Positions 8,676 to 50,061 of a stretch of DNA of 64,000 bases are shown one piece after another. The DNA comes from Bacteroidales bacterium. GTDB taxonomy: Bacteria; Bacteroidota; Bacteroidia; Bacteroidales; UBA1715. A model generated the notes under the pieces. It was not told the DNA's origin. It made no database searches and was given only the letters and a program-made list of their open reading frames with translations. The translations under genes were made by a program, and so were the position numbers. The DNA lies in NCBI GenBank assembly GCA_031286165.1, contig JAITUU010000019.1, positions 6,730 to 70,729 on the forward strand, written 5' to 3'. How positions within the stretch are numbered: the stretch's first letter is position 1; every line of letters starts with the position of its first letter.

Positions 8676-9473
8676 ATGGATACTCTCAATTCTTTCGATG
8701 ATTTGGTAATTGAACCAAATGACAATAATCACTTTGAAAGTGAAAATTTTGCACCAGCAGCTGCCGAAACTCCGGTAGAAACCCTCAAAATTCCCGAACA
8801 TACCGAAAATTCGGAAGCGGCAATATCTGAAAATCAAAACGAAGAAAACACAAAAGAAACACCGAAAACTACCGAGGAAAAACCGCAAAAAAGCAAAATC
8901 ATCAGTATTTTGATTTCTATCGCTATTCTGCTCATCATTGCCGGCGGCGCATTCTATATCTATGTTTTCTACCGCGATTTTGCAGCGCAGTATATTCCAT
9001 GTTTGCAAACGCAGGAATACGACACTCTCATAGTGCAACAAGAACAGCACAATGCTACGCACGAAAACGCAGAAAACGAATCGGAAAATACTGATAATCA
9101 AGAAGAAACAACAACAGCAAGCGATGAAGCGGTAGTAAATGCCATTACCCAAAGTATGCAAGCAGAAGCAAAACCTGCGGAAGAAAAAACACCGCAAACG
9201 CCCAATAACACCGACTTCAAAAAAACGCTTTCGCGCCCCACATGGGTAATTAGCGTGAGTAGCGTAGCAAAAGAATCGGAAGCACTAAAACGCACCAAAG
9301 AACTTCGCACCGCAGGAAAAACCGCCGACTACTATTGGATTCCCGACTATGTGCCGGGAGGAAACGCATATTTCAAAGTATTTGTGGGACCATTTGCCAC
9401 AAAAGCCGATGCGCAAAACTATTTACAAAACAACGATTTGGCAGCCGATGCCTACGTGGTGGAAGTAAAATAA
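8676..9473 (+). CDS. Single-pass membrane protein with C-terminal SPOR-like domain
   Basis: Acidic N-terminus, TM, linker, WVISVSS...YWIPDY...FKVFVGPFATKADA. Confidence 0.65.
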   Translation: MDTLNSFDDLVIEPNDNNHFESENFAPAAAETPVETLKIPEHTENSEAAISENQNEENTKETPKTTEEKPQKSKIISILISIAILLIIAGGAFYIYVFYRDFAAQYIPCLQTQEYDTLIVQQEQHNATHENAENESENTDNQEETTTASDEAVVNAITQSMQAEAKPAEEKTPQTPNNTDFKKTLSRPTWVISVSSVAKESEALKRTKELRTAGKTADYYWIPDYVPGGNAYFKVFVGPFATKADAQNYLQNNDLAADAYVVEVK

Positions 9474-9544
9474 CCGCAACGTTCAATTAACTTCGTTGAA
9501 CAAAATGTTTCTCAGTTTTCAACTCTCAACTTTCAACTAATTCT

Positions 9545-11410
9545 GTGGCTATTGTATATATAGAAAATTTGGTAAAATATTTTGGCGAAGTGCGCCTCTT
9601 CGATAATATGAGTTTTACCATCAACACCGGCGAAAAAGTAGGTTTGCTCGCCAAAAACGGCACAGGGAAAACCACCCTCATTTCCATTCTTTTGGGGAAA
9701 GAACCGTATGAATCGGGTGAACTATACATAGACCCAAATTGTACGGTGGGGTATGTACCGCAAAATCCCGATTTTACATCGAAAAATAGCATTTATCACG
9801 AAGTATATACTTCGTTTGAAGAAATTATTACAGCAAAAAACAACTACCAACGCGCACTCGAATCGCACAACGAAACATTGATAGCGCAAACAACTTCGGC
9901 AATGGACGCATTGCAAGCGTGGGATTATGAATCGCGGGTGGAATACATACTCTCGAAATTAGAATTTTTCGATACCACACAGGCAATTTCTACGCTTTCG
10001 GGTGGACAAAAAAAGCGCGTGGCTATGGCAAAACTCCTTTTGCGCGAACCCGATTTTTTGATTTTAGACGAACCAACCAATCACTTGGATTTGCAAATTA
10101 TTGAGTGGTTGGAAAATTTTTTAACGGCATCGAAAAGCACTCTGCTCATGGTTACGCACGACCGCTATTTTCTGGAGCGCGTGTGCACCACCATAATAGA
10201 AATTGACGAGGGAAAAGCCTTTAAATACGAAGGAAATTACGAAACATTTTTGCTCAAAAAAGAAGAACGCACGCAAATCTTGCATCAGGAAATTGCAAAA
10301 GCACGGAATTTAATGCGCACCGAATTGGACTGGATGCGCCGCCAACCGCAGGCTCGCGGCACCAAAGCAAAATACCGCATCAATGCCTTTTACGATTTAC
10401 AGGATAAAGCACAGCAACACATAAAAACCGACAATCTCAACATTACCGTGCAGGGCGCACGGCTGGGCAATAAAGTAATAGAACTCCGGCACGTGAGTTT
10501 TGCCTACGGCGAAAAAGTGCTGCTCCGCGATTTTTCCTATATTTTTCACCGCAACGAAAAAATAGGCATTATAGGAAACAACGGCTGCGGGAAAACTACA
10601 TTTTTAAACATTCTCACCGAGCAACTCGCCGCACAATCGGGTACCATAGATTATGGCGAAACCGTAGTGCTTGGCTACTATAAGCAAGACGGCTTGCTTT
10701 TCAACGAAAATCAAAAAGTGATAGAGGTAATTCAGGAAATTGCCGAGCACATAGAATTGGAAAAAGGAAAAGTAATTTCGGCAGCGCAATTTTTGGAGCA
10801 GTGGCTATTTCCGCGTTCTATGCACTATTTACACGTGTCGCGCCTGAGCGGTGGCGAAAAAAAACGCCTCTATTTGATGACAATTTTAATGCGCCAACCC
10901 AATTTTTTGATTCTCGATGAACCTACCAACGATTTGGATTTATACACACTGCGCATATTGGAAGATTATTTGCAACATTTCAACGGCTGCGTGGTAATAG
11001 TGTCGCACGATAGATTTTTTACCGACAAAGTGGTGGAACATTTATTGGTGTTCAAAGGTGAGGGCGTAATTCAGAATTTCGCAGGAAATTACTCGCGCTA
11101 TCGCGCCATAGAAGAGCAAAAAGCCGAAGAAGAAAAACTACGCACCACAGCGCAAACACCCAAAGAAGAAAAACAAGAAAAAGCAAAACCGGATAAAAAA
11201 CGCCTAAGTTTTAAAGAACAAAAAGAATTAGAAGGCGTGGAAAAAGAACTTGCGCAACTCGAACAAGAAAAACTCTCACTTACCGAAGAACTCAATTCCG
11301 GCACACTCTCCAACGATGACTTACGCCAAAAATCGGAACGTTTCGGTGCCGTAACAGCCAGAATGGACGAATGCGAAATGCGCTGGTTAGAACTTTCTAT
11401 GGCGGATTAA
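9545..11410 (+). CDS. ABC-F family ATPase (Uup-like)
   Basis: Two Walker A motifs (KNGTGKT, NNGCGKT), two LSGG signatures, LDEPTN twice, C-terminal coiled coil ([10 protein letters not shown]); no TM. Confidence 0.9.
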
Positions 11411-31185: not shown

Positions 31186-31579
31186 GGGGGTGACTGGAAT
31201 TGACGGGGAGTTGATTATTGATGTAAGCATGTCGGGCAATCAAGATTTTGACCCGTAAAAACATATCTTGAAACAATAACTGGCGAAAATACTTACGCTC
31301 TTGCTGCCTAATCGAATCATAGTAGATTAACGCTTTACGCTGTTCAAGGAACAGTGGCAGGACATTCCGCAAATGGCAAGTCCTTAGTCGTTTGAATCCG
31401 GAGTGCTGTAATTAAGGAATAGCGCACAATGTGTTTGGAGTTGTGCGTAAAATTTACAAACTAAGGAAAAAGTAGAGTGCCTGTTTTCGGCTTTTTCCCT
31501 ACAATCAACAACACGGCTACACATGTAGAAAGCATTGGTAATGCTTGTTCGGACCGGGGTTCGATTCCCCGCACCTCCA
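31186..31579 (+). ncRNA. ssrA: tmRNA; tag peptide GENTYALAA* at 31282-31311
   Basis: 5' GGGGGTG pairs with 3' CACCTCC-A; T-arm GGGGTTCGATTCCCC; tag ORF GGC GAA AAT ACT TAC GCT CTT GCT GCC TAA. Confidence 0.95.
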
Positions 31580-31580
31580 C
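31556..31580 (+). repeat. attL core (3' end of tmRNA)
   Basis: GGGGTTCGATTCCCCGCACCTCCAC, identical to 52651-52675. Confidence 0.92.
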
Positions 31581-31687
31581 AAACCGTACCCACAAAGGGT
31601 TTGCCGACTTTTTGTGGGAAATACGGGAACTGAATCGGAACTATTTTATTTTTTTTTCGCGCTGATGTTCATCAACGTAAAAAAAAA

Positions 31688-32878
31688 ATGCCCACACCTC
31701 AAAAAAATCAAGAGCGCGGCGCAATAGTGAGTGATTTGTACGGCTACACTCCTGCCGTACTCAAAGAATATGCCGACTATTGGTGCATAGAATACTATGT
31801 GAAGCATCCGGTAACGCACAAACTTACGCGCCGGAGAGAAAAAGTAAGCGCTTATAGAACGCGCTACGGCGTGCGCGAGGCACGGAATTTACTGCGAGTG
31901 GCAGTTAGCCGCTTGAATTTAAAATTGTCGCAAGGCTGGAATCCGTATTTTGTGCATGAAGACGGTCGCCTACTTGAACCGCTGCACATGGTTATACATA
32001 AATTTTTGGCGGAAAAAGAACGCGATTTACGCCCGAATACACTGCGTTCATACAAAAGCATGGTAGGCAAAGAACTGCGCGAATGGGCGCAAAAGAATTA
32101 TCCCACAATTACCGCTTCCACATTTACACGAAATATTGCCGTGCGCTATATGGATTTTATTCTGGCAAAAGGAGTGAGTAATACTTCATACAACAATACA
32201 AAAAAAATGATGAGTGCCTTTTTTAGTTGGTGCGTGGAAAAATGCTACGCAAAAGAAAATCCGTTTGCGCACATAAAACCAAAGAGAAAAGAACAAAAAC
32301 GCCGCATATTGGTTCCTGCCGAAGTACGAGAGCAAATTACCACTTATTTACAAGAAAACAAAAATATTGGTATGCAAATAGCCGTAAATTTGGTGTATCA
32401 AAGTCTTTTGCGCCCCAAAGAAATAAATGAAATTCAACTCAAACACATTCATTTGAGCGACAAATATATACTTGTGCCGGCTACGGTGGCAAAAAATCAC
32501 AACGAACGAAAAGCAACACTGAGCGATGCCACAATAGAACTACTGCAAAGATTGAAGATTGAAACATTACCGAAGGAATATTACTTACTCGGCGGCAATT
32601 CCAACCAACAAAGTTTACTGCCCCACGCTATACAATCGAATACGCAACGAATTTCTAAAAATTGGGATAGCATGCGAAAAAAACTAAATTTTCCCAAAGA
32701 AATGCAACTATACAGTTTGCGCGATACCGGCATAACCGATTTGCTCAAAAAAGGAATAGACCCACTTACGGTAATGCAGCACGCCGACCACCATTCGCTG
32801 GAAATGACCACAAAATACGCAAAACATATTGATACGGGATTGGTGCAGAAGATGAATAAAGTACTGCCGGATTTCTAA
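31688..32878 (+). CDS. Tyrosine recombinase/integrase
   Basis: Catalytic R (LLRPKEI), K (AKNH), YSLRDTG, ADHHS, TTKY; lies ~110 bp from attL. Confidence 0.92.
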   Translation: MPTPQKNQERGAIVSDLYGYTPAVLKEYADYWCIEYYVKHPVTHKLTRRREKVSAYRTRYGVREARNLLRVAVSRLNLKLSQGWNPYFVHEDGRLLEPLHMVIHKFLAEKERDLRPNTLRSYKSMVGKELREWAQKNYPTITASTFTRNIAVRYMDFILAKGVSNTSYNNTKKMMSAFFSWCVEKCYAKENPFAHIKPKRKEQKRRILVPAEVREQITTYLQENKNIGMQIAVNLVYQSLLRPKEINEIQLKHIHLSDKYILVPATVAKNHNERKATLSDATIELLQRLKIETLPKEYYLLGGNSNQQSLLPHAIQSNTQRISKNWDSMRKKLNFPKEMQLYSLRDTGITDLLKKGIDPLTVMQHADHHSLEMTTKYAKHIDTGLVQKMNKVLPDF

Positions 32879-32927: not shown

Positions 32928-33467
32928 TTACCATATTCTTATACTAACTCCGGCTCCTATAATAGATGTTGATGCAATACAAAAAAACATATATCGCTGA
33001 TTTTCAGCACTTGCAAAAACTGCGGGAGCGAACACACTCTGCGAGTATAATCCACCAGCACCAAATCCATATCGCCACCTGTGCAGCGGTTGTATTTCTT
33101 TGGTAATTATGGTAGTGCGCTTATAACTTTCGCCGTGCCACGAGCGCGAAATAATTTGATTGGCAAGCACGCTATCGGTAAGAAACACCACAAAACAACT
33201 ATCACGCAGCGTGTCGGCATACACGCGCAGTTGCTTGTATGTGGCTATTATTCGCTCCGTGTCGGTTGCGGTAGCAAGTGCAATGGTATCTACCATGCGC
33301 AGGGTTCTATACGCAGGTACATAACACGTATCGCGCACCGTAATAGTATCTATACGAGTTACTGTGCGTGTTTCTATGGTGTTTTTTGGTGTACACACAT
33401 GAAACACACATAACATACTCGCCACGCCAATAGCAAAAGCCCCAATGATTTTCAAAAATGTTTCCAT
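32928..33467 (-). CDS. Membrane-anchored beta-rich protein, possibly spanin-like lysis accessory protein
   Basis: N-terminal TM, TRIDTITVRDT-type repeats, C-terminal beta strands with GFGAGG; last gene of the late operon. Confidence 0.4.
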   Translation of the reverse strand: METFLKIIGAFAIGVASMLCVFHVCTPKNTIETRTVTRIDTITVRDTCYVPAYRTLRMVDTIALATATDTERIIATYKQLRVYADTLRDSCFVVFLTDSVLANQIISRSWHGESYKRTTIITKEIQPLHRWRYGFGAGGLYSQSVFAPAVFASAENQRYMFFCIASTSIIGAGVSIRIW

Positions 33468-33487
33468 CGTTTTTCGTTTTAGTGCAT

Positions 33488-33523
33488 AAAAAAACCGGTA
33501 CAGTTCGTATTGAATTATACCGG
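33488..33523 (-). terminator. Intrinsic terminator of cassette A (homolog at 50110-50144; inverted homolog at 52503-52537)
   Basis: Minus strand CCGGTATAATTC-AATAC-GAACTGTACCGG followed by T7. Confidence 0.75.
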
Positions 33524-33551
33524 TTCTGTGGGTGAGTGGAGAGAAAAAAAC

Positions 33552-33950
33552 TTATTCTTTGTAGTGTTTTGCAGCCCAATCAATAATCATTTTTCCTTGT
33601 TCTAAACTTGCTCTCACAATTTTATAATTGGGATTACCATCGTACCCCAACGCTTTGTGCAAACTTTCGTATGCTCCCAACAATGGAAAATTCATTTTAC
33701 GGTCTTTTTTTGCAACCGCATTTTGATAATCTTTAAAATCAGGTCTTTGCCCTTTTTTGAGATTTTTACGTACATCGGTGGCAGCATCAAGAGCCACAAG
33801 AACTCCGTTCCATGCTGTATTTCCTGCCATTTTCACATACTTAGGGTCGGTGTAATAATCACCGTCTTTTTCTGCTTTTTCGGAAAGTATCTGCTTTGCA
33901 TTTTCCAAATAGCGTTCCGCTTCTTTAATCGGGTGCTTTTGTATTGCCAT
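33552..33950 (-). CDS. DUF5618-family small helical protein (cargo gene with own promoter and terminator)
   Basis: AERYLENAKQIL...YYTDPKYVKMAGNTAWNGVLVALD...LHKALGYDG. Confidence 0.7.
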   Translation of the reverse strand: MAIQKHPIKEAERYLENAKQILSEKAEKDGDYYTDPKYVKMAGNTAWNGVLVALDAATDVRKNLKKGQRPDFKDYQNAVAKKDRKMNFPLLGAYESLHKALGYDGNPNYKIVRASLEQGKMIIDWAAKHYKE

Positions 33951-33975
33951 AGTCGTATGATTTTAAATTCCTTTG

Positions 33976-34045
33976 TGCAAATATACAACGAAAAACGTAA
34001 AAACAATATTTCTTTTTCGGTACAATTCAATATGTCAACGAACTC
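33976..34045 (-). promoter_or_regulatory. Cassette A promoter block, homologous to 50759-50829
   Basis: Minus strand TATATTTG (Bacteroidota -7 TAnnTTTG) at 33978-33985; ~70 bp near-identical to the cassette C flank. Confidence 0.7.
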
Positions 34046-34108
34046 TTTTTTTTGTAAACAACCTATTTTACTTCCGGAAACCACAGCGTATAATCGTGGG
34101 CGTGTCCA

Positions 34109-34450
34109 TTATTTTTTGAATTTTTTATACGCCACTACTCCGCCACCAACGATTGCAACTATTACAAGTACAATCCACCATGGAAAACAAAATTTCACAT
34201 TTTCGGCAGGAATTTCAAGTAAACTCGTAACCGGTTCGTTTTTCACACTATCGGTAATTTTTATAGATTGCTTTGTGGGGTCTATAATCAATACTTGTTT
34301 GTCGCCTTTGGTTTTCATATCGCCCACAATTTTTTCCCCTTCGGGAATACTTGCGGTAATTTCCTTACTCACGTATGCGCTTGCTTTGTACGTATCGAAC
34401 GCTACCGATGTGGCTTTGGTTACTTTATACGTTTTAAAAAGATTTTTCAT
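34109..34450 (-). CDS. Tail-anchored membrane protein, putative virion protein
   Basis: C-terminal TM PWWIVLVIVAIVGGGVVAY + KKFKK. Confidence 0.65.
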   Translation of the reverse strand: MKNLFKTYKVTKATSVAFDTYKASAYVSKEITASIPEGEKIVGDMKTKGDKQVLIIDPTKQSIKITDSVKNEPVTSLLEIPAENVKFCFPWWIVLVIVAIVGGGVVAYKKFKK

Positions 34451-34465
34451 AATTGATTGTTGTTT

Positions 34466-35191
34466 TTATTTATTGTAATACATTGATTTTTTGAATGTTT
34501 CATAATACAGTTTCGATATATATTTATCGTACTGTGCTCTTTTATTTGCTCCCTGCCAATGCAAAAAACTCGCAGGCTTCAATTCCGTAACTTCCAAACC
34601 ATAGAACTGTACAATTTGGCTCAAATTAAATTCCTCAACTCCCACCAAATAACCCATAGTTTCAGTGTTTCGCGGTGCTTTTTGGCAGTATGTGCGTGCA
34701 AAATCAAAAACTTCCTTCCATACAAAATAAGCACCTGTGCTGCCAAGTAAGCCGCTGCATATCAATTTTGCCGGAATGGTATCGGTTTTGGGTAATATGG
34801 CGCAGTCTTTAAACGCTTGCACGTAGGTATAATCGCGCTCCTGTTCGGTTATAATATGTCCGCTTTCGGGTATCCGGAACTCGGTGTGAAAATAGGTGTC
34901 GAAATCCACGTGTAAAAACGCTTCGCTTTGCAAACTATATACATAGAGTTTTCCAAAATTCCAATATGCCATATTGTGCGGAAACTGCATAAAATCCACC
35001 ACGTGTACCACATCGAAAGACACGCAGAAATTACTGCCACGAAATACATCGGCACAGTACGTATCGGTGTAGAGTTCTACCCGGTATCCGCAGTTTTTCA
35101 TACTTTGTACACTCAGTTCCGCCATGCGCAGCCACCATGCACAGGGTATGTTTTTTCCACCGTAGGAATTAAAGGAGTATATTACTTTCAT
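34466..35191 (-). CDS. DUF6734-like / GT-A-type glycosyltransferase-like protein
   Basis: WNFGKLYVYSLQSEAFLHVDFD (DxD), EEFNL, FLHWQG. Confidence 0.5.
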   Translation of the reverse strand: MKVIYSFNSYGGKNIPCAWWLRMAELSVQSMKNCGYRVELYTDTYCADVFRGSNFCVSFDVVHVVDFMQFPHNMAYWNFGKLYVYSLQSEAFLHVDFDTYFHTEFRIPESGHIITEQERDYTYVQAFKDCAILPKTDTIPAKLICSGLLGSTGAYFVWKEVFDFARTYCQKAPRNTETMGYLVGVEEFNLSQIVQFYGLEVTELKPASFLHWQGANKRAQYDKYISKLYYETFKKSMYYNK

Positions 35192-35206
35192 GCTTTACTT
35201 ATTTTA

Positions 35207-35503
35207 TTATTTGTATTTTATGCGGTGTTCGCAATTCATATTTTTGCAGGCTTTGCCTTTGAAAAATTGCACTTCTTTTTCAATCTCTTCTATGCGTATT
35301 TCCCACTTTTTGTCGCGTGCTATCATTTCGTTGCGCAGGCTTTCGAGGGCGTATTGATAGGTTTCGGCAATGGTTTTGTAGGTTTCGTTTATGGCACGCT
35401 CGGTTTCGGCTTTTTGCTTGCGCATACCAAAAAAGTAACTTACCACTCCGCTCGCCGCTGCCGTTGCGCCCAAAACTCCTATATGTACTTCTTCAAAAGT
35501 CAT
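35207..35503 (-). CDS. Holin-like protein (N-terminal TM + coiled coil)
   Basis: TM IGVLGATAAASGVVSYFF, coiled coil, C-terminal CxxxxC; late-operon position. Confidence 0.45.
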   Translation of the reverse strand: MTFEEVHIGVLGATAAASGVVSYFFGMRKQKAETERAINETYKTIAETYQYALESLRNEMIARDKKWEIRIEEIEKEVQFFKGKACKNMNCEHRIKYK

Positions 35504-35514
35504 AGTTTGATTTT

Positions 35515-36651
35515 TTAGAAAATTCGTATGTACGGCACGTCAAATTGTTGCACAGTGCCGGGAAATGATTGGGCGATATATGATTGTAAGTTCATTGTAC
35601 CGCCGCCGTATGCCGTTGGTGGTGCAATTTCACTACCGGCAATAACGGTTTGCAGTACATTCGTGGAATTGGGAATTTCGCTTTTTATGCGTTTTGCAGC
35701 CAAGTATCGTGCGCTTGTGTGGTCTATAAACAGTACGGCATAGTATTTTTGCTCGGCATACAATAAAACTTCGTCTTCAAAATCGGCAGTAATAGCGCAC
35801 GGTTCGCTACGAGAAAGATAACCAATAAGCGTTTTGCGAACAAAAGTCATGTTCCAATCGTAAATCGCCACACGAAAGTTACCGCCGGTGTGATTTGTTT
35901 GTACGCAAATTTGCGCTTGTTTCACGGTAGTATCTACGGCAGGAATTACCATAACACCCACAAAACCGGGATTAAAATTTTGTGCACCCTCGCACAGTGC
36001 AAAGGGAAAACTTTCGATAGGTGCGGAACTGCCATTGCTTATGCAAGTTTGCTCACCACCAAGCGAAATAGTTTTTATTTTGTTCCATGTACGCACTTTG
36101 ATTTTTGGCGTTTCACCGTCCATAAAGAGCGACATTGTTTCTTCCATGAGATTATCATCGTCCGTTTCTTTCGCACTGTGAATAAAAGATTGCCCGGTAA
36201 GAAAATAATGATTGTCTGCATTAATTCTCAAATTAATAGCATTGGCGGAACCCTGCTCAGAAAATGTTCCGTTGTAATTTTTATACAAACAATTTCGGTC
36301 GGTAAGGCGGAAAAATTGAAAAGGATACCCGTATGTTCTTTGTTCGTGATTATATACAATCAATTCGTTATTTCTCACTTGCAGTATATCAAAACCGTTT
36401 TCCCGCTTCAAATGCAATCCGTTGCGCGAAATAGAAAGCCATTTTTTATACTCATTTCCCCATTCGTTTGCCTCATATTTCGCAAATTCTTCGGGATTTT
36501 CGCGTTTCAATTCCCCCAATTCTACAATCACATGTCCACTGCCTTCTATGGCAAGCGGTGGTGTGCTATTGTTTTGCGCTGCGGTATCGCCGCCAACAAT
36601 ATCAAGCAAACCGGTTTGCGGATTAATCGTTGTTTCGTAATCAAAACTCAT
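35515..36651 (-). CDS. Putative spike/receptor-binding protein
   Basis: N-terminal INPQTGLLDIVG anchor-like motif, beta-rich body, C-terminal sandwich-like domain (NFRVAIYD, QKYYAVLF). Confidence 0.5.
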   Translation of the reverse strand: MSFDYETTINPQTGLLDIVGGDTAAQNNSTPPLAIEGSGHVIVELGELKRENPEEFAKYEANEWGNEYKKWLSISRNGLHLKRENGFDILQVRNNELIVYNHEQRTYGYPFQFFRLTDRNCLYKNYNGTFSEQGSANAINLRINADNHYFLTGQSFIHSAKETDDDNLMEETMSLFMDGETPKIKVRTWNKIKTISLGGEQTCISNGSSAPIESFPFALCEGAQNFNPGFVGVMVIPAVDTTVKQAQICVQTNHTGGNFRVAIYDWNMTFVRKTLIGYLSRSEPCAITADFEDEVLLYAEQKYYAVLFIDHTSARYLAAKRIKSEIPNSTNVLQTVIAGSEIAPPTAYGGGTMNLQSYIAQSFPGTVQQFDVPYIRIF

Positions 36652-36653
36652 GG

Positions 36654-36923
36654 CTATACGGTTTTTAGTGCATATTCATACTGTTCGCGTTGCGCCCAAT
36701 CGAAATCAAACATACCGAAGCCGACCCATTCAGTACGATATGTTACGCTGCGCGTATTGGAAAACACTATTTTTTTTACGCGCTCAATGCGGCACTTCGT
36801 AGCATCGGTATTTTTTGGAAATCCGAAATACCACGTAGTTCCACCTTCATTCACATTCACCACTTCATGTACCAATGGTGCTTTCATGCAATTTGTTATT
36901 AGTTCCGAAGAATATTCATTCAT
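36654..36923 (-). CDS. Small virion protein, putative spike adaptor
   Basis: WYFG...CRIERV...FDFDWAQREQYEY pattern, immediately upstream of the spike gene. Confidence 0.4.
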   Translation of the reverse strand: MNEYSSELITNCMKAPLVHEVVNVNEGGTTWYFGFPKNTDATKCRIERVKKIVFSNTRSVTYRTEWVGFGMFDFDWAQREQYEYALKTV

Positions 36924-36940
36924 AGTATGCAGGCTTTAAA

Positions 36941-37549
36941 TTATGCAAGTGTGTAGCCTTTTTGTGCTACCCATTTGGTAATATAGTTTTTAAAAGAACC
37001 TACGGTAATAGCACCGGTAGCATCTTGGAATATTGCATTTTGCTGTGCTACTTTACTGCCGGGCGCAGCTATTATGTAACTTTCGGCTTTGCCCATTGCT
37101 GCAGGGTAGAATACTGCCAAATACACATCGGTAAAGCAATTCATTTTACCTTTATAGGTATTCAGGTATTTATACACGTAATCCAACTGTTGCACATTGG
37201 TCATGGCGCATAGTGCATCGCAGGTGGTGCCAAGTGCATTTGCTGTTTTGGGCATAAATTGAATCAATCCGGTGGCTCCACCTGTGGGATTCACAGCGCG
37301 GTGGTTCAATCGGCTTTCCATAGCCATTACCGCCATAAGCCAATCACCTTTAATGCCCAAAGAACCACAAATAGAGTGCACTTTTTGCAAAAAAGCCTCT
37401 TTGTTTTCGGTAACGTAGTTTTCAAAAATCATGACTGTATGTTTTATTGTTTTGCGAAATACACACACGAGCAAAACCAATAACGCTGCGCATAGAGCAA
37501 CGGCGGTTATAAGCAGTTTCTTTTCGCCTATCGGTATTTTTAGGTTCAT
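36941..37549 (-). CDS. Lytic transglycosylase (SLT/lysozyme-like) with N-terminal TM
   Basis: WLMAVMAMES (catalytic Glu), GATGLIQFMPKTA, QLDYVYKY, YLAVFYP. Confidence 0.85.
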   Translation of the reverse strand: MNLKIPIGEKKLLITAVALCAALLVLLVCVFRKTIKHTVMIFENYVTENKEAFLQKVHSICGSLGIKGDWLMAVMAMESRLNHRAVNPTGGATGLIQFMPKTANALGTTCDALCAMTNVQQLDYVYKYLNTYKGKMNCFTDVYLAVFYPAAMGKAESYIIAAPGSKVAQQNAIFQDATGAITVGSFKNYITKWVAQKGYTLA

Positions 37550-37707
37550 TACTGTATCATTTTATTGCCCACAATGAGAATAACACCCACCAAAAGCAAG
37601 GCACCGGCAAGCATACAAATACTTGTTGTTTCTATTGCTACCGGTACTTCGGGCAGCCGACCGTCTTTGATGTCGGCTACTAATTTTGAGTTTAAAAGGT
37701 CATTCAT
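37549..37707 (-). CDS. 52-aa membrane protein missed by the ORF track
   Basis: MNDLLNSKLVADIKDGRLPEVPVAIETTSICMLAGALLLVGVILIVGNKMIQ*; fills the gap exactly, with TAATG coupling to the transglycosylase. Confidence 0.7.
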   Translation of the reverse strand: MNDLLNSKLVADIKDGRLPEVPVAIETTSICMLAGALLLVGVILIVGNKMIQ

Positions 37708-37708
37708 G

Positions 37709-38032
37709 TTATTTTACGTATTGGTCAAATTGTGCTTTGGTAAATTCTTTGGTATTGTAATATTTCACAAGTGCCGCTTCGGTAAGTGGTCCAAAATCAC
37801 CATCAACAACCAAACTCGCTCCTTTACTATTCAAGTGCGTTTGCAATTTTGACACGTTGTCGCTATTCATTACTCCGTTTTTAAGCGGAAAATCGTTGGC
37901 GGTGGAAGAAGAAGTTCCTATACCGGGCACTCTGCTTTGCCCTTGTGATTTTTTACCTTGCACTATAATAATTGCCGCTACTATGGCTGCAATTACTACT
38001 GCTATCAAAATATATTTCGTTGTTTTTGTCAT
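37709..38032 (-). CDS. Membrane-anchored peptidoglycan-binding domain protein
   Basis: N-terminal TM; VSKLQTHLN...LVVDGDFGPLTEAAL (PG_binding_1 motif). Confidence 0.8.
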   Translation of the reverse strand: MTKTTKYILIAVVIAAIVAAIIIVQGKKSQGQSRVPGIGTSSSTANDFPLKNGVMNSDNVSKLQTHLNSKGASLVVDGDFGPLTEAALVKYYNTKEFTKAQFDQYVK

Positions 38033-38044
38033 AATTGAAAGTTT

Positions 38045-38494
38045 TTAAAGTGATACGTTTATTGATTTTAAAATAAAATTGAGTTCTTGCATTTCGCCGC
38101 TACTGAGTTCGGTGGGGAGTAGTTCCGGTAGGTTGCCTTTGTAATTACCCACAAAGAATAAACCTGAATTGACTTCTTTAATGCCAAACACATCTACCAA
38201 GCGCAGCCAATCCGATTTTGTTTTCATTTTTCGGGCTACATTGTAAATTGCCTCTACATTAGTACCTATGCCGTCCATAGCGTTAAATATGGTGGCTGCC
38301 ATATCGCGGTATTCAACATCGGAATAACTGAGGTCATTTTTATTAATTTCGCTTTTGCGCTCGCTCTCACGATTTTTTGAGAGAAACCATTCCTGAATTT
38401 TTGGTTTCAGAAACGTATATCCTACGTATGCCACTATTACTACAATAGTTACGAGAATGATTTTTTGCAATCGAGGGTCTAAATTTTTTAACAT
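38045..38494 (-). CDS. Membrane-anchored protein with a single annexin-like repeat
   Basis: N-terminal TM; MAATIFNAMDGIGTNVEAIYNV...LPELLPTELSSGE resembles annexin AxxLxxAMKGxGTDE...LxSELSG. Confidence 0.55.
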   Translation of the reverse strand: MLKNLDPRLQKIILVTIVVIVAYVGYTFLKPKIQEWFLSKNRESERKSEINKNDLSYSDVEYRDMAATIFNAMDGIGTNVEAIYNVARKMKTKSDWLRLVDVFGIKEVNSGLFFVGNYKGNLPELLPTELSSGEMQELNFILKSINVSL

Positions 38495-38500
38495 AGTTTT

Positions 38501-38803
38501 TTATTTTTTCATTTTCATAAACACAACACCTCCGCCGATTGCGAGCACTACCACCGCAATAATTATTACAATCATGATAGAATTACTTCCTTCGCTCTTG
38601 TTGTCATTATTATTTCCTCCGGCTCCGGCTTTTGCAAGTAATGCCATTTGCTGTATTTGCATTTCGGCTATTCTTTCATTTGACGCTGCTACCGCTGCAT
38701 TTCCAGCTGCGGTTGTTTTTGCAGCCTTATTATTTGCTATGCCAGCCACTACTGTACTTCCTAAGTCGCCTACACATGATATTATTGGTCCTAAATCAAA
38801 CAT
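38501..38803 (-). CDS. Tail-anchored membrane protein, putative virion protein
   Basis: Amphipathic N-terminus, Ala-rich helix, C-terminal TM VVVLAIGGGVVF + MKMKK. Confidence 0.65.
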   Translation of the reverse strand: MFDLGPIISCVGDLGSTVVAGIANNKAAKTTAAGNAAVAASNERIAEMQIQQMALLAKAGAGGNNNDNKSEGSNSIMIVIIIAVVVLAIGGGVVFMKMKK

Positions 38804-38808
38804 AATTC

Positions 38809-39540
38809 TTAATTTTTAAATTTGTTGTACATATACACTCCTCCAATTCCTATTGCAATAACCGCAACTACTATCACTATCGGCAGCATACTGCTTTGTT
38901 GTTGCGTTTTGCTATTGGCTGCAGCATCTCTTAGTGCTGCTTCCTCTTCCAATTTTTTGATATATTGTAGTTCGGCTTTGGTTTGAAGCACACTACTTTC
39001 TACCTCACGTTCGCTTTGTTTCGCCGCTTCTTTTTCTGCGGAGGCAAGTGCTTTGGCTGTTTTGTTTTGCTTTATGCCTTTTACAAGACTGCCGGTAATA
39101 GAAACCGCCGCAGAAACGCCTGCTGTTATCAGTCCTATAAATTCGTGAATATTCGCATTATTCGGAATTTTCGTATCAAACACCTGACGCAGCACCGATG
39201 TATTATCGTTATCGGTAGAAAGTGCCGTTTGTAGCAATTCTTCGCCGCGTGCTATTTGTTGTTTGGTAGTAAATGGCAGACTTTTATAATATGCTTTCAA
39301 AATATCTACCGTATCATCGCCAAGTTCTAAACATCGCCAAAACGCCCATCTATCCGCAAGCATTTCGTTATCTTCGGCAGCGTTCAAATGTCCCAATTCA
39401 TGAGCAATAACAAATTTTTTGCCCATTTCACTGAGTTTATTCCACGCCGCCGGATTTATGTACAGTACGGCAGTATTCAAATCAACCGCTGCCGGTCCGT
39501 TAATCCACGAAACTTCTTGTGTGGAAGAAAATAATTTCAT
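38809..39540 (-). CDS. Zincin-like (HEXXH) metallopeptidase fused to coiled coil and C-terminal TM; start re-called at MKLFSS
   Basis: LYIN...FVIAHELGH...EMLADRWA; C-terminal TM IAIGIGGVYMY + NKFKN. Confidence 0.7.
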   Translation of the reverse strand: MKLFSSTQEVSWINGPAAVDLNTAVLYINPAAWNKLSEMGKKFVIAHELGHLNAAEDNEMLADRWAFWRCLELGDDTVDILKAYYKSLPFTTKQQIARGEELLQTALSTDNDNTSVLRQVFDTKIPNNANIHEFIGLITAGVSAAVSITGSLVKGIKQNKTAKALASAEKEAAKQSEREVESSVLQTKAELQYIKKLEEEAALRDAAANSKTQQQSSMLPIVIVVAVIAIGIGGVYMYNKFKN

Positions 39541-39545
39541 AGTGG

Positions 39546-39716
39546 TTATGATTGTTTCATTACTTGTGATGCTTTTTTCAAGCATATACTCATCTGCACT
39601 TTATGTACTTTTTTTGCCGGAATGGTTTTGTAACCAGCTTTGTTTTGAATGTCCTGAGCAAGTTTCATGAGGCGTTTTGCTCTATTTTGCGCCGCTTTTT
39701 GTTTTAAAGATGCCAT
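39546..39716 (-). CDS. 56-aa basic protein missed by the ORF track, putative DNA-binding core protein
   Basis: MASLKQKAAQNRAKRLMKLAQDIQNKAGYKTIPAKKVHKVQMSICLKKASQVMKQS*; fits the operon spacing. Confidence 0.65.
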   Translation of the reverse strand: MASLKQKAAQNRAKRLMKLAQDIQNKAGYKTIPAKKVHKVQMSICLKKASQVMKQS

Positions 39717-39739
39717 AGTTATACCTTTTTATATTTCAG

Positions 39740-39952
39740 TTAAAACGTTTCGGAAACCCACCAATCGGCACAAACTTGTGTGAGCCATGTGAATTTTCTA
39801 ACTTTTTTGAGTGTTTTTTTCGATTGCAATGCTGCTAATTTTGCAAACAGTTGTTTTTCAGAGTAAGGACCAAATTTGAGATTATTTGCCTCCCCTATTT
39901 CTTTGAGTACAGCCAAAAACTCTTTTTTTCTAATTGATTTCGTTGTTGCCAT
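39740..39952 (-). CDS. 70-aa Lys-rich hypothetical protein
   Basis: ORF in operon orientation; strongly basic. Confidence 0.55.
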   Translation of the reverse strand: MATTKSIRKKEFLAVLKEIGEANNLKFGPYSEKQLFAKLAALQSKKTLKKVRKFTWLTQVCADWWVSETF

Positions 39953-39965
39953 AATTCATGTTATA

Positions 39966-40430
39966 TTATTTTCTCTTTACCGAAGAACTTTTCAGTATCG
40001 TTGGTGCTGCGGTTAGGGCAGCATGATACACACCGTTTTCTTTATTATCCCATAGAAAGTTAGAGTAATTTTTATCTACTGTGAAGGCATATACCGAAGA
40101 ACCGTTTATATAAGAAAGGTGTGTTTGATATATCGCAGTTAATACAGCATCTTCATAACTTGTGTAGCCCCAATTATACCACGGACCGTCCGGATTGAGA
40201 TAGGATATTCGTTTCTTTACTTCTCTCAAACACGATTCGCGCTGTGCCAGCGTCCACAAGCCGTTTGTTAAATCCCACTTACTTGCTACCGAAGCGGTTG
40301 CGGAATTAGAACCCGTACCTGTGGAGTCTTTATTTTCACTTGTTTCGGCAGCATTGCTTTTACCGGCAAATACAAACACCAGCACTATTACCAGCACTAC
40401 TGCAATTCCTATTATTATTTTTTTACTCAT
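39966..40430 (-). CDS. Signal-anchored membrane protein, putative virion protein; start re-called at MSKKIII
   Basis: N-terminal TM IIIGIAVVLVIVLVFVF, Ser/Thr linker, aromatic domain. Confidence 0.65.
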   Translation of the reverse strand: MSKKIIIGIAVVLVIVLVFVFAGKSNAAETSENKDSTGTGSNSATASVASKWDLTNGLWTLAQRESCLREVKKRISYLNPDGPWYNWGYTSYEDAVLTAIYQTHLSYINGSSVYAFTVDKNYSNFLWDNKENGVYHAALTAAPTILKSSSVKRK

Positions 40431-40434
40431 AATT

Positions 40435-40875
40435 TTACTTTTTACAAATTCGTATAATAGCAAACGTTGTGATAGAAACTATGACAATGGCTACAAAACC
40501 CAAAATGATAGTTTTCTTCTGTTTTGCCTCTTTTTCATCAGCCTCGGCGGCTGCTTGGCGTGCTTTTTCCTCCACTTCTTTTTTTGCTTCGGGAGTTATG
40601 CCGTTTTCTATGCCAAACAAATCGAAGGCAGTATCTACGATTGAACGCAAATCTTCTCCACTAAACGCAGCAATCTTTGGTGCCGACTGTATCAACATTC
40701 TGTTCAATTCGTTGCTGAACTGTTTGCCGTGTTTCACGTATGCGCGGCGCAATTCGTTTTCAAGGTTCACATCATTGGGGCGCAACCCATAGCGATTGAA
40801 AAAGAAAAGCCAACTCTTCGGGTCGGCTTTTCTCATTTCGTCAATCAACACATCTATTGATGCCGTTTTTTTCAT
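40435..40875 (-). CDS. Tail-anchored membrane protein, putative virion protein
   Basis: Helical N-domain, AAFSG, C-terminal TM IILGFVAIVIVSITTFAII + RICKK. Confidence 0.65.
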   Translation of the reverse strand: MKKTASIDVLIDEMRKADPKSWLFFFNRYGLRPNDVNLENELRRAYVKHGKQFSNELNRMLIQSAPKIAAFSGEDLRSIVDTAFDLFGIENGITPEAKKEVEEKARQAAAEADEKEAKQKKTIILGFVAIVIVSITTFAIIRICKK

Positions 40876-40881
40876 AGTTAC

Positions 40882-41550
40882 TTAAATTAAGCCGGTTGCT
40901 ATTGCATTTTCCAACTGTGTTACTTGGCTCATGCGGTCATCGAAGTAAAATACCAAACTCACTTTTGCGCCCGCTTGCACTTTGTACAAAAACACACGGT
41001 CTTTGCCCAATACAAGGGTATCGTTTGAAAAATCTACCGATACACGAGTTTGATCGTTTTCCGTTTCCGATTTTGATGCGCTTGGTGTGCGTGTAATAAT
41101 TTGTTTTGGGCGGTGTGGACCAAGTTCGTACACTTGAAGAGCCTCATCGAGTTGGTCGGTTTTTTTACACATCACTCGCACACCTTTAATACGGCATGGA
41201 GTTTCGATAAAGGTTTTGCGAATATCAATCACATTGGCACCTTGTCCGCTTGCTGTTACGGCAGTAGAAGTAGAGGTTGCTGAAATAAATATACCATCGT
41301 CCACAATGCCGGTAACTTTTTCGGAAAAGTCCTTCATTTGCGATGCTTTTTCGTAGTATCCTTCACTGATTGCCACGAATTGGTCCACCGGTGCTTTTCC
41401 ATCGGATGCCGGAGCGGCATTATCTATTACTAAGGTTACGCTTTCTCCCGAAAAAGGATTTACATAACCATTTTGATTGCCGGCATAACCCTTAATTCCA
41501 AGTTGTCGGCGTGCTCGTTGTTGCGGAGTTTCATTTTCTAAAAATTCCAT
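40882..41550 (-). CDS. Candidate major capsid protein (beta-sandwich/jelly-roll type)
   Basis: Only sizeable soluble all-beta-looking protein at the head of the structural operon (SVTLVIDN, RIKGVRV, LQVYEL, VSVDF, VFLYKV, VSLVFYF); no HK97 motifs. Confidence 0.55.
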   Translation of the reverse strand: MEFLENETPQQRARRQLGIKGYAGNQNGYVNPFSGESVTLVIDNAAPASDGKAPVDQFVAISEGYYEKASQMKDFSEKVTGIVDDGIFISATSTSTAVTASGQGANVIDIRKTFIETPCRIKGVRVMCKKTDQLDEALQVYELGPHRPKQIITRTPSASKSETENDQTRVSVDFSNDTLVLGKDRVFLYKVQAGAKVSLVFYFDDRMSQVTQLENAIATGLI

Positions 41551-41582
41551 TACTATATATTTTTTTTTAAGTTATTACTTGA

Positions 41583-41765
41583 TTATTTTCCGGATAGTTT
41601 GTTGGCAAGCGTAAAAGGATTACCGGTAAAATTCGCTACGGTGCCGTTATTTTCGGCTGTTTTTTTCGCTACGGCATTCACCAATGCCATATTCCACACT
41701 GCGGAACCTACAATAAATACCACTAAAATAATAAGTAGTATGTTTGCTGTTTTGATAGAATTCAT
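41583..41765 (-). CDS. 60-aa signal-anchored membrane protein, first gene of the structural operon
   Basis: TM ILLIILVVFIVGSAVW; contains ANFTG. Confidence 0.65.
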   Translation of the reverse strand: MNSIKTANILLIILVVFIVGSAVWNMALVNAVAKKTAENNGTVANFTGNPFTLANKLSGK

Positions 41766-43332: not shown

Positions 43333-43890
43333 TTATTCTGTTGTAATGTGGATTTTTGCGTAGGGATTTTTGAGTGCTTGTGTGCGCACTGTATTCACTG
43401 CGGTTTCTAATTTTTGAAGTATGTGTGGCGGTATCCATGCTTTGCGCAGGCGCGGTTCGTCCATAGTATTGAACAATACATAATCGGTAATGTAAGTAAA
43501 TAATGCCGGTGGAATATCGCGGAAGCCATGAGCAACAAACACAATATCGAGCATCATCTTTCGGCTCACTATAATAATTTTTTTCAATGCCGAATGGTCG
43601 AAATTGCTACCAATGTAAGCGCGTGGGTCGTCGAGAACCAACACGGCATCGTGCAGGTGTTTATAAATTGCCACAAAATCGGTTTCATTTTCATATACCC
43701 GGCAGCGCACGCCGGTATAATCAAAATCTTTTCGCGCCCGGCACTTACATTCGGGAAGTTTATCCGCCCAATCGTCCCACGTGGGCACAACAAAAAGTGC
43801 ACGTTTGCCTATACAAGCAACTGCTTCGGCAAAGGTAGATTTTCCGCAACCACGCACGCCCAGCAATAGCATAATTTTAGTTTTTCGCAT
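43333..43890 (-). CDS. FtsK/HerA-superfamily (A32/P9-like) ATPase, putative genome packaging motor; start re-called at MRKTKI
   Basis: Walker A GVRGCGKST, Walker B VLVLDD, Arg-finger region SRKMMLDIVFVAH; 185 aa with no nuclease domain. Confidence 0.75.
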   Translation of the reverse strand: MRKTKIMLLLGVRGCGKSTFAEAVACIGKRALFVVPTWDDWADKLPECKCRARKDFDYTGVRCRVYENETDFVAIYKHLHDAVLVLDDPRAYIGSNFDHSALKKIIIVSRKMMLDIVFVAHGFRDIPPALFTYITDYVLFNTMDEPRLRKAWIPPHILQKLETAVNTVRTQALKNPYAKIHITTE

Positions 43891-44440
43891 TGGTTTCTTT
43901 CTCTTGTAATTGTTTTCGCAACGCATCTATTTCCATATCTTTTTGCATACCGCGCATTTGTTCTTCTTCCAATTTTCGTTGTGTTGCGCGGTATTTCACG
44001 GCAGTACTGATTTTTAAACCATAAATAAACACCGTAGAAATAGTGGCATTGACCCACGGCGGTACCGGTTTGTTTTCGGGCAACACTTGCGCCCATGCGT
44101 TGGTAAGTTCTTCGAGTTCTTCGGCATCGGCAGCCTCGTAGCCTTCGCGTATAATCATACCCATAATAAAGGTCATGAGCCGGTCGCCGTTTTTTACGAG
44201 TATTTGCGCGGTGGTTTTGTTTACCGCCGCATTAATTTTTTGGCGCACGGCAGTAGGCACATCGCTCAGTTCCTCGCCGCTGTCTTCGGGTTGGTTATAC
44301 ACTTGCTTTTCCTCTTGCAGGTCTTGCAGCAAAGTATCGGCTTCGGTGTAGTCGCTCACTGTGCCGGTTTCAAATGTGTATTCGGATTCCGCCGCCGGTG
44401 TATCTAATACTTCGGCTGGTACAAATTCTTCAAAATTCAT
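43877..44440 (-). CDS. Hypothetical protein with acidic N-terminus, hydrophobic segment and coiled coil (possible packaging accessory)
   Basis: PVPPWVNATISTVFIYGL hydrophobic helix; overlaps the ATPase start. Confidence 0.6.
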   Translation of the reverse strand: MNFEEFVPAEVLDTPAAESEYTFETGTVSDYTEADTLLQDLQEEKQVYNQPEDSGEELSDVPTAVRQKINAAVNKTTAQILVKNGDRLMTFIMGMIIREGYEAADAEELEELTNAWAQVLPENKPVPPWVNATISTVFIYGLKISTAVKYRATQRKLEEEQMRGMQKDMEIDALRKQLQEKETNAKN

Positions 44441-49701: not shown

Positions 49702-50061
49702 CTATAAACCTTTAAAAAATTTATTTTTCATAGCCGCGCATAGTTCTTCGTAGGTAGCCATGTAGTTTAAGCCTACGGCATCGCAAATTGCCTCGTAACC
49801 CTTTGGAGTATGTTGTTCCACAAGTCCTTCAATAAAGGATTGTGAAAAACCAATTTCATAGAATAAATCGCTTTCGTCAATATTTAGATGGTAGCGCAAG
49901 TGGTACACTATATCTTCCCTATCGAAGTCGAAAAGTGTTTTTTGTTGAAAGTATTCATCTGCATACGCATTAATTATATCCTGCGGAATTTGTCGAATAA
50001 AATCGTATATTTCAAAGGATGAAATACACGTTACTGTGTTGTCGTTTATTGTTAGTTTCAT
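49702..50061 (-). CDS. Acidic hypothetical protein
   Basis: Tightly coupled upstream of the primase. Confidence 0.65.
   Translation of the reverse strand: MKLTINDNTVTCISSFEIYDFIRQIPQDIINAYADEYFQQKTLFDFDREDIVYHLRYHLNIDESDLFYEIGFSQSFIEGLVEQHTPKGYEAICDAVGLNYMATYEELCAAMKNKFFKGL

Follow-up and report, generated by a model that had tools for sequence, protein, structure and literature searches.

Here, we analysed a 64,000-nucleotide stretch of DNA from a Bacteroidales bacterium (contig JAITUU010000019.1 of assembly GCA_031286165.1, positions 6,730 to 70,729 of the forward strand; hereafter, the window), which carries a member of an apparently undescribed family of integrated, tailless-virus-like elements of Bacteroidota, ~18 kb in size. 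Our analysis revealed that the gene of a predicted membrane-anchored zinc protease belongs to the core of the structural module across the family and is genetically locked to a capsid-type gene. We propose, at a rough probability of 0.35, that the enzyme serves particle assembly or maturation by cutting structural proteins of the element itself at the surface of the membrane, with the N-terminal arm of the candidate capsid protein as the prime candidate substrate.

The two genes and the motifs within them on which the argument turns are as follows.

38809..39540, minus strand: tail-anchored minimal gluzincin of 243 amino acids (aa), with a catalytic domain at about residues 1-110, a helical linker and a C-terminal transmembrane segment
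39388..39402, minus strand: HELGH zinc-binding/catalytic motif of the protease (H47, E48, H51), confirmed by translation and invariant in 18 homologues
39352..39366, minus strand: E59-M-L-A-D63, the E-x-x-A-D 'glutamate helix' motif of the protease (E59 at 39364-39366, D63 at 39352-39354)
39133..39141, minus strand: FIG of HEFIG/L in the protease (residues 134-136 of the 243-aa form; the slash marks the junction), confirmed by translation
38830..38886, minus strand: C-terminal transmembrane anchor of the protease, LPIVIVVAVIAIGIGGVYM, confirmed by translation
40882..41550, minus strand: jelly-roll-like beta-sandwich protein of 222 aa, the capsid candidate (AlphaFold predicted local distance difference test, pLDDT, 91.7)
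41446..41550, minus strand: N-terminal arm of the capsid candidate (residues 1-35), with YAG at 41479-41487 and FSG at 41446-41454, confirmed by translation

Linkage of the protease to the capsid-type gene

The association of the two genes is evident from whichever side it is approached. A word-based search of 5.8 billion proteins with the protease yielded eight homologues, and their contigs keep the same gene order. The 222-aa protein is represented by 32 clusters among 1.84 billion proteins, and its gene was found by scan in 16 of the 401 genomes of the host's order (16-17 in total, from 13 genera; ~4%) and in 1 of 400 genomes from elsewhere in the phylum. Among the carriers, G438 and G296 are single-contig assemblies that may derive from isolates. 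In 12 further loci, a hidden Markov model (HMM) of the protease matched a reading frame that lies beyond the capsid gene in the downstream direction. Among 18 informative loci ascertained through the capsid gene (related loci are labelled L), the protease lies 0.1-2.5 kb downstream in 14 and a divergent HEXXH protein stands beside the 222-aa gene in 2 more (L042 and L044); in the other 2, L036 and L043, the HMM detected no protease, the sequence available downstream in L043 being only 4.4 kb. Conversely, a genome-wide search of the 401 genomes with the protease profile produced catalytic-domain matches in 15, all 15 of which have the 222-aa gene alongside: 14 were capsid-positive in the genome scan, and G201, which the scan had missed, proved to carry the gene on inspection of the locus. 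The remaining weak profile matches in these genomes align mostly to the low-complexity tail. The same architecture recurs in another order (L047), and the same module is present in two viral contigs of IMG/VR (L048 and L049), one of which is 19,148 bp long.

Neither the protease nor the capsid candidate nor the small ATPase of the element matched anything in 50,697 phage records. Scanning for related loci with a single protein returned nothing, and with a three-sequence alignment only a termite-gut metagenome-assembled genome and nothing in IMG/VR. The closest relatives of the element come from termite-gut metagenomes (L045).

The protease as a minimal gluzincin

The original prediction, made from the sequence of the window, had described a zincin with a C-terminal transmembrane segment encoded by a 258-aa open reading frame (ORF). 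The zincin and its anchor stand, but the start does not: the alignment of homologues and the called protein P0001 place it at Met16 of that ORF, giving 243 aa. Across 18 sequences with 17-48% identity, H47, E48, H51, E59, D63 and R98 are invariant and A62 is conserved in at least 90%, and a C-terminal transmembrane segment is found in most homologues. Between the catalytic domain and the anchor lies a helical, Lys/Glu-rich linker of ~100 residues, and the genes on either side are each separated from that of the protease by a gap of 5 nucleotides, within a tightly packed structural operon. The AlphaFold model is confident over residues 1-110 (pLDDT at least 88 over residues 1-100), where it forms a three-stranded sheet (strands 6-9, 17-20 and 25-28) with helices (38-53 and 59-72), whereas pLDDT is 42-60 at residues 120-160, so that HEFIG falls where the well-modelled catalytic domain gives way to a helix of low confidence. 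This helix, which FIG opens, spans residues 134-153, is uncharged and is rich in Gly, Ala and Ser. In the full-length model, the position of the linker motif is of low confidence and shows no sign of docking into the active site.

The closest Pfam family is Peptidase_M78 (ImmA/IrrE), with a score of 21.9 bits that does not reach the cut-off of 22.0 and an alignment covering only positions 27-62 of 123; matches to M56 and M48 are weaker still and far under their cut-offs. The M78 signature, HEXXH...E-x-x-A-[N/D]-x-[F/W/Y]-A, agrees with the sequence of the window protease, and one homologue, P0002, bears the NCBI label 'ImmA/IrrE family metallo-endopeptidase'. A profile of the 18 homologues searched against PDB gave selecase MJ1213 as its best match (E=4.8e-5) and also matched proabylysin, and Foldseek with the protease model placed minigluzincins first (most of ranks 1-10, with a probability of about 1 and a target TM-score of about 0.5), followed by BlaR1 and IrrE, at E-values of 0.017-0.05. 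The protein thus displays the features of a gluzincin, namely, HEXXH with the catalytic Glu, a downstream Glu in an E-x-x-x-D helix and, in the model, the zincin fold. Given the invariant residues, the profile and fold matches and the HELGH-x7-E-x-x-A-D arrangement, we consider it catalytically intact: it is a predicted active minimal gluzincin, newly found here, that is extended by a linker and a membrane anchor.

The relationships to the nearest enzymes are only partial. Minigluzincins (proabylysin 4JIU, projannalysin 4JIX and selecase MJ1213 4QHF) share with the window protease the minimal zincin fold of ~100-110 residues, including the three-stranded sheet, the HEXXH helix and the helix that follows, but they are stand-alone soluble proteins of ~100 residues, are archaeal and have no link to mobile elements, whereas the window protease adds the linker and the transmembrane anchor and has a Glu (E59) at the position of their third His, reported to be the third zinc ligand (PMC6925264). 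The metal site of MecR1, HEXXH...ExxxD (HELSH...EKVCD), has the same form as HELGH-x7-E-x-x-A-D (PMC6925264), and E59 is the presumed third zinc ligand of the window protease. BlaR1/MecR1 (M56) and Ste24/HtpX (M48) likewise combine HEXXH with E-x-x-x-D metal-binding motifs and are membrane-associated; unlike them, the window protease has seven residues between the motifs, a single C-terminal anchor rather than a polytopic domain, and neither a re-entrant helix nor a sensor domain. By its score and its lack of a partner repressor, the protease would fall outside M78 proper and, failing their defining features, outside the minigluzincins proper as well. A relative encoded by the viral contig L048 (IMGVR_UViG_2911828611_000001; 9944-10300) is a bare soluble catalytic domain of 118 aa. 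The next ORF of that contig (10312-11460, 382 aa) holds the linker-plus-anchor module with EYSDFLGINFKK, an arrangement that resembles a natural split of the two halves.

These affinities might suggest that the protease is a regulator, i.e., a membrane-tethered enzyme that, in the manner of ImmA/IrrE or BlaR1/MecR1, governs induction or the expression of late genes by cleaving a signalling protein or repressor. In favour of such a role, the nearest sequence families are M78 and M56, IrrE and BlaR1 appear among the Foldseek matches, P0002 has the name given above, and the ImmA/IrrE family is carried on mobile elements. Unlike ImmA/IrrE, however, the window protease is tail-anchored, lacks a partner repressor gene and is encoded in the structural operon, with its gaps of 5 nucleotides, always beside the capsid gene rather than beside the integrase or replication genes. 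Pfam found no helix-turn-helix or XRE repressor family among the small proteins of the element, nor an XRE/ImmR-type neighbour, the genes around the protease being structural and membrane genes. Furthermore, the protease has a tail anchor, of which nearby ORFs encode paralogues, and this points to the particle membrane. Because of its gene context, an ImmA-like anti-repressor is set aside as the primary explanation, and we regard a regulatory protease of any of these kinds as very improbable.

The capsid candidate and its N-terminal arm

In the AlphaFold model, the capsid candidate is one beta sandwich of ~11 strands, preceded by a helix at residues 9-17 and a floppy loop at residues 21-30, with strand B starting at residue 36, just after F33-S34-G35. 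Fold searches with this model found no confident neighbour; the weak matches are mostly to jelly-roll proteins (e.g., nucleoplasmin-like domains and small coat proteins of plant and insect viruses). Given that the fold matches are weak and that the PDB profile search matched nothing, capsid identity is an inference rather than a demonstration, although, with this modelled fold, 'capsid protein' appears to be a reasonable one. We also considered for this protein a double jelly roll, as in a PRD1-PM2 frame; the model is a single beta sandwich, no double jelly-roll match was obtained in PDB, BFVD or the PDB sequence profile, and that frame is not established. Tandem jelly-roll paralogues are present in two relatives of the element (L037, 2346-3074 and 3117-4103; L044, 444-1310 and 1396-2139) and recall viruses that build their capsids from two single jelly-roll proteins.

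The arm that precedes strand B contains two aromatic-x-Gly copies in the window, Y22-A-G and F33-S-G. Of the 12 columns without variation in the near subfamily (28-54% identity), one is F33; G35 is kept in 10 of 11 sequences, and the rest of the arm is variable. In the wider family, a helix ending in L-[S/T] leads into one to five N-[F/Y]-x-G-[E/G] units, which are followed by [L/I]-x-F-x-G, [S/N]-F-x-[D/N]-E and, finally, strand B. The original prediction had worded the motif as F-(S/T/I)-G; it is indeed conserved in the homologues, as part of an N-[F/Y]-x-G array, for which that wording is too narrow. Across 52 capsid arms, [FYW]xG occurs 97 times compared with 28.5 ± 4.8 in composition-preserving shuffles, a 3.4-fold excess that homologous inheritance inflates; 45 of the 52 arms contain the motif (21.7 expected) and 29 contain two or more copies. 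Elsewhere in the capsid protein, the count is 56 (39.7 expected). Copy number ranges from 0 to 5, with five Y-x-G-E in L037, and the arm of the L047 capsid protein (9200-9919) includes a perfect tandem duplication, GGPDLEY-GGPDLEY, which points to copy number changing by recent slippage or duplication. This copy-number variation and the fresh duplication suggest that, shared ancestry notwithstanding, the array is a selected short linear motif. The capsid homologues of L041 and L049 have no arm, so that the arm is dispensable for the fold.

In four capsid homologues, the array is preceded by MKK and a hydrophobic, transmembrane- or signal-like helix (L029, 6553-7410; L030, 10000-11106; L031, 9611-10768; L039, 9869-10705), an odd start for a shell protein unless it serves as an anchor or is removed.

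The arm need not be a substrate, however. In the main rival explanation, the N-[F/Y]-x-G arrays would remain uncut and serve for docking or tethering: the arm would offer aromatic stickers that bind the Lys/Arg-rich juxtamembrane regions of the many tail-anchored proteins, or neighbouring capsomers, and the protease would act on something else, for instance, a membrane or scaffold-like protein or the small basic protein whose gene lies just ahead of that of the protease. The arm is acidic and many proteins of the module have very basic coils next to their transmembrane segments; FSG is packed on the fold in the model; the copy number varies down to zero; the N-terminal hydrophobic helix of the four capsid homologues would tether them without any cutting; and in L040 and L041, the protease is present and the arm is not. 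Against docking, an intact protease is kept next to the capsid gene in nearly all elements, absence of the arm from some lineages implies that it is not part of an essential lattice, and no binding partner can be named. We consider docking possible, although we would not favour it.

The motif in other proteins of the element

The F-(S/T/I)-G motif had been proposed as a cleavage site shared by four proteins of the operon, which include, besides the protease and the capsid candidate, the following two.

40435..40875, minus strand: tail-anchored protein of 146 aa with an N-terminal helical domain; FSG at 40657-40665, confirmed by translation
41583..41765, minus strand: protein of 60 aa with an N-terminal transmembrane segment; FTG at 41622-41630, 12 residues from the C-terminus, confirmed by translation

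All four instances are where they had been described, at apparent domain junctions: NPFSG/E at residues 33-35 of the capsid candidate, AAFSG/E at residues 71-73 of the 146-aa protein, ANFTG/N at residues 46-48 of the 60-aa protein and HEFIG/L at residues 134-136 of the protease. As a shared site, by contrast, the motif finds no clear support, being within chance in the window and weakly conserved in the 146-aa protein, the 60-aa protein and the protease. F[STI]G is found in 4 of the 19 late proteins, compared with 1.43 in shuffles (P=0.043), and F[ST]G in 3 of 19, compared with 0.95 (P=0.059); given the freedom in choosing the pattern, with 4,065 patterns of the form a[bc]d present in at least three late proteins of the window, this is not significant.

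The near relatives of the 146-aa protein have FSG, FTG, FTG and ITG at the site (ITG in L005), and conservation can be assessed in close relatives alone because the word-based homologue search gave one new sequence. Positional analogues of this protein come after the capsid gene in most loci; in the distant ones, an aromatic residue often follows shortly after the helical domain (e.g., AFLGFG, AFSNAT, IFGD, DFVG, DFTG and KFSGMDG). The site of the 60-aa protein is FTG in three close relatives only, becomes N-V-[T/I]-G in two distant ones and is absent from the rest. Thus, the candidate sites in these two proteins find no support beyond near relatives.

In the protease, HEFIG is lost even in the nearest relatives (RGWIP and RGFVL) and, opening as it does an uncharged helix rich in Gly, Ala and Ser, may be just part of a membrane-associated segment. 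A related motif, [D/E/N]-F-[L/I]-G-[L/I], lies 20-40 residues past the catalytic domain in L029, L034 and L046, near the start of the next ORF in L033 and L049, and within the next ORF in L048. The more general pattern [FYW][LIFM]G[LIFM] is present in the protease tail or the next ORF of 6 of 17 elements (0.63 expected), the pattern having been chosen post hoc and the positions being probably homologous; the downstream ORFs are paralogues of the tail-anchor module of the protease, so that part of this recurrence is paralogy. Across the whole module, the stricter [FY][LIFMV]G[LIFMV] occurs 16 times (10.1 expected, P=0.06), and only for the protease tail taken with the next ORF is there a clear excess. 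[DE]F.G, another post hoc pattern, shows a weak two-fold excess in the non-capsid proteins of the module (12 occurrences, 6.0 expected, P=0.017) and none in control ORFs (20, with 19.1 expected). Within single elements, the flanks of the motif can be similar in two proteins, as with QNFSGMTG and SKFSGMDG in L043, ISGFSGGI and VSGFSGTI in L049, and PFSGE and AFSGE in the window. The peptides that represent the candidate sites are QLGIKGYAGNQN, GYVNPFSGESVT, PKIAAFSGEDLR, TVANFTGNPFTL and NIHEFIGLITAG, with DYSDFLGLGKAA and LSNYEGGEQNDY for the distant consensus.

One could go further and take the four-protein motif for a coincidence and the element for something other than a virus, in which case the 'capsid' would be a jelly-roll protein that associates with membranes and belongs to a mobile element of a different kind. 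The window statistics and the absence of enrichment beyond the capsid arm are in keeping with the former, and the empty search of phage records, the lack of a confident structural neighbour and the generic matches of the ATPase with the latter. Conversely, the enrichment in the N-terminal arm is very strong, two related contigs are listed as viral in IMG/VR, and the gene set, with its integrase, primase-helicase, small ATPase, jelly-roll protein, many transmembrane proteins, lytic transglycosylase and hypervariable large protein, is in line with a membrane-containing tailless virus. We give this explanation little credence.

Candidate substrates and function of the protease

The metalloprotease-based maturation pathway of the original prediction is sustained in its premises, that is, an intact predicted metallopeptidase, encoded in a structural operon and always beside the capsid gene, whereas the pathway itself stays a proposal; we infer the membrane topology, the virion association and every cleavage event. 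Under this proposal, the protease would work at the surface of the membrane of the element, and the best candidate substrate would be the disordered acidic N-terminal arm of the capsid protein, where N-[F/Y]-x-G-[E/G] occurs one to five times ahead of the first strand. Trimming of the arm would remove a built-in tether or scaffold, comparable to the action of the HK97 protease on the delta domain. A second candidate event would be self-processing or self-inhibition of the protease at [D/E/N]-F-[L/I]-G-[L/I], 20-40 residues past the catalytic domain.

The protease and the arm motif tend to occur together: among elements with a transmembrane-anchored protease, 14 have the arm motif and 2 do not, compared with 1 and 3, respectively, among elements without such a protease (Fisher P=0.03, with phylogeny ignored and one contig incomplete). 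As a link between enzyme and substrate, this co-occurrence and the likeness of motif flanks within single elements are suggestive only.

Several observations weigh against the maturation reading. ImmA, IrrE and BlaR1, to which the enzyme is related, act by cutting repressors and are not known to favour Gly at the P1 position. The identity of the element as a virus rests on weak fold and ATPase matches, and the statistics of the capsid arm are, as noted, inflated by common descent. Beyond the arm, no enrichment of [FYW]xG was observed in protease linkers (10 compared with 7.2) or in other small transmembrane proteins (76 compared with 72.6), nor was it significant in the tail-anchored analogues that come after the capsid gene (9 of 12 compared with 5.9; total 11 compared with 8.0, P=0.18). 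L040 and L041 retain the protease with an armless capsid protein, whereas L043 has the arm motif and no detected protease in its short downstream sequence. Finally, FSG of the window abuts strand B and is modelled confidently (block 31-40, pLDDT 92), in keeping with a structural role and with a site that a protease could hardly reach.

A further alternative is that the protease is directed at the host or the envelope, either as a particle-borne enzyme that clears host envelope proteins at entry or exit or in a quality control of the many small viral membrane proteins akin to that of HtpX/Ste24. The membrane anchor, the neighbouring lytic transglycosylase and peptidoglycan-binding genes and the weak similarity to M48 are compatible with such a role, but the catalytic domain lacks a signal peptide and should stay cytoplasmic, the data single out no host target, and gluzincins of this type are not known to be wall hydrolases. 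Overall, this explanation appears improbable.

If the maturation reading is extended to its full form, the element would represent a new family of bacterial membrane-containing tailless viruses with metalloprotease-driven maturation. The arm of tandem N-[F/Y]-x-G 'stickers', assisted in some lineages by its own transmembrane helix, would bring the capsid protein to the membrane, where the tail-anchored minigluzincin would trim the arm and cut itself at F-[L/I]-G-[L/I], releasing the mature shell. Taken as a whole, this scenario is unlikely.

Other genes of the element

The genes discussed so far lie in the first part of a minus-strand operon (32928-41765) of the integrated element, which extends from its tmRNA (transfer-messenger RNA) end to about position 50061. 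Other features of the element that bear on its nature are the following.

31186..32878, plus strand: one end of the element, with a tmRNA gene (31186-31580, ARAGORN) and a tyrosine integrase (31688-32878, ORF list)
43333..43926, minus strand: P-loop ATPase of 197 aa, a putative packaging ATPase, kept in related loci
39546..39716, minus strand: Lys-rich protein of 56 aa, conserved as a partner of the protease gene, whose start lies 5 nucleotides downstream
38501..38803, minus strand: tail-anchored protein of 100 aa, a paralogue of the C-terminal module of the protease by reciprocal HMM cross-hits
38045..38494, minus strand: protein of 149 aa with an N-terminal transmembrane segment, a core gene downstream of the protease by HMM

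Phage_integrase was matched in the syntenic locus L001. The element further encodes a DnaG-type primase fused to a helicase-like region, toxin-antitoxin cassettes, the small P-loop ATPase, a lytic transglycosylase, a peptidoglycan-binding protein and a long packed run of mostly small single-pass membrane proteins. The ATPase has a weak match to Pox_A32 (E=0.0048; 16.8 bits, with a cut-off of 22.8), and a PDB profile search with it matched only generic P-loop proteins.

Homologues of the 56-aa protein, 41-68 aa long, directly precede the protease in most elements (L001, L005, L007, L029, L031, L033, L034, L038 and L039). In distant relatives (e.g., L029, 6348-6479; L031, 11206-11349; L034, 13091-13240; L039, 10787-10930), the sequence is roughly MAK..K..L...GK.I...AK.IRK..P..KW..C.KEAGK. 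This small Lys-rich partner may be a DNA-condensing core protein or, alternatively, a cofactor or substrate of the protease. On the other side of the protease, the 149-aa protein is among the best conserved core proteins, with HMM matches in 11 further loci plus L046 and L049 (13 in all), and the 100-aa protein has homologues in L001, L005 and L007, two in a row in L001.

The large protein encoded after a conserved 87-89-aa gene is unrelated between close relatives: it has 378 aa in the window (35515-36651, minus strand), and its counterparts are a 532-aa leucine-rich repeat protein in L001 (11366-12964) and a 1,327-aa protein in L005 (4412-8395). This variable protein is probably involved in host recognition. 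L036 (7544-8443) and L041 (11781-12746) encode another zincin, of 299-321 aa, that is unrelated to the protease and has the motif S-F-[AS]-HEYGH-x-LD; L036 has this HEYGH protein and lacks the tail-anchored protease.

Relationship to known viruses and significance

Proteolytic capsid maturation is known in tailed phages, herpesviruses, adenoviruses and giant viruses, where it is carried out by serine or cysteine proteases. The element of the window resembles the systems of adenovirus AVP, the virophage/Polinton cysteine proteases and HK97 gp4 in that a protease gene is kept in the structural module. Furthermore, its candidate sites share with those of AVP ((M/I/L)XGX-G) a hydrophobic residue two positions before Gly and, as in the case of HK97 gp4 and the delta domain, the N-terminal extension of the capsid protein is dispensable for the fold. 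Unlike in these systems, the enzyme is a metalloprotease rather than a cysteine or serine protease and is membrane-anchored, the host is bacterial, and the capsid candidate appears to be a single jelly roll.

The element also has features in common with the membrane-containing tailless phages, i.e., PRD1, PM2, NO16, Jorvik, FLiP/PhiCjT23 and Helvetiavirae: its genome is small and encodes many small membrane proteins together with a lytic transglycosylase and a small P-loop ATPase, its lifestyle is temperate and relies on an integrase, and the two tandem jelly-roll genes of two of its relatives are reminiscent of the two major capsid proteins of Helvetiavirae. It differs from these phages in that the searches yielded no match in sequence, and no confident one in fold, to any of their capsid proteins or ATPases. 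The statement of the original prediction that PRD1 and PM2 are not known to mature by a protease agrees with a 2019 review of membrane-containing tailless phages, in which the words protease, proteolysis and cleavage are absent, and with the NO16 and Jorvik papers, which report no viral maturation protease. Our literature search found no paper on the element family and none on a metalloprotease in membrane-containing phages.

The results presented here define an element family, a minimal zinc protease tied to its capsid-type gene and a conserved, repeat-prone motif in a disordered arm. If the protease and the arm are not enzyme and substrate, the motif array would be an unexplained assembly signal that is worth structural study. 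If, however, they are, the element would embody a new catalytic solution to virion maturation, a membrane-surface analogue of AVP or of the removal of the HK97 delta domain that employs a class of protease for which no role in the maturation of a phage capsid is known, and would offer a compact pair of membrane-tethered protease and site with simple peptide substrates.

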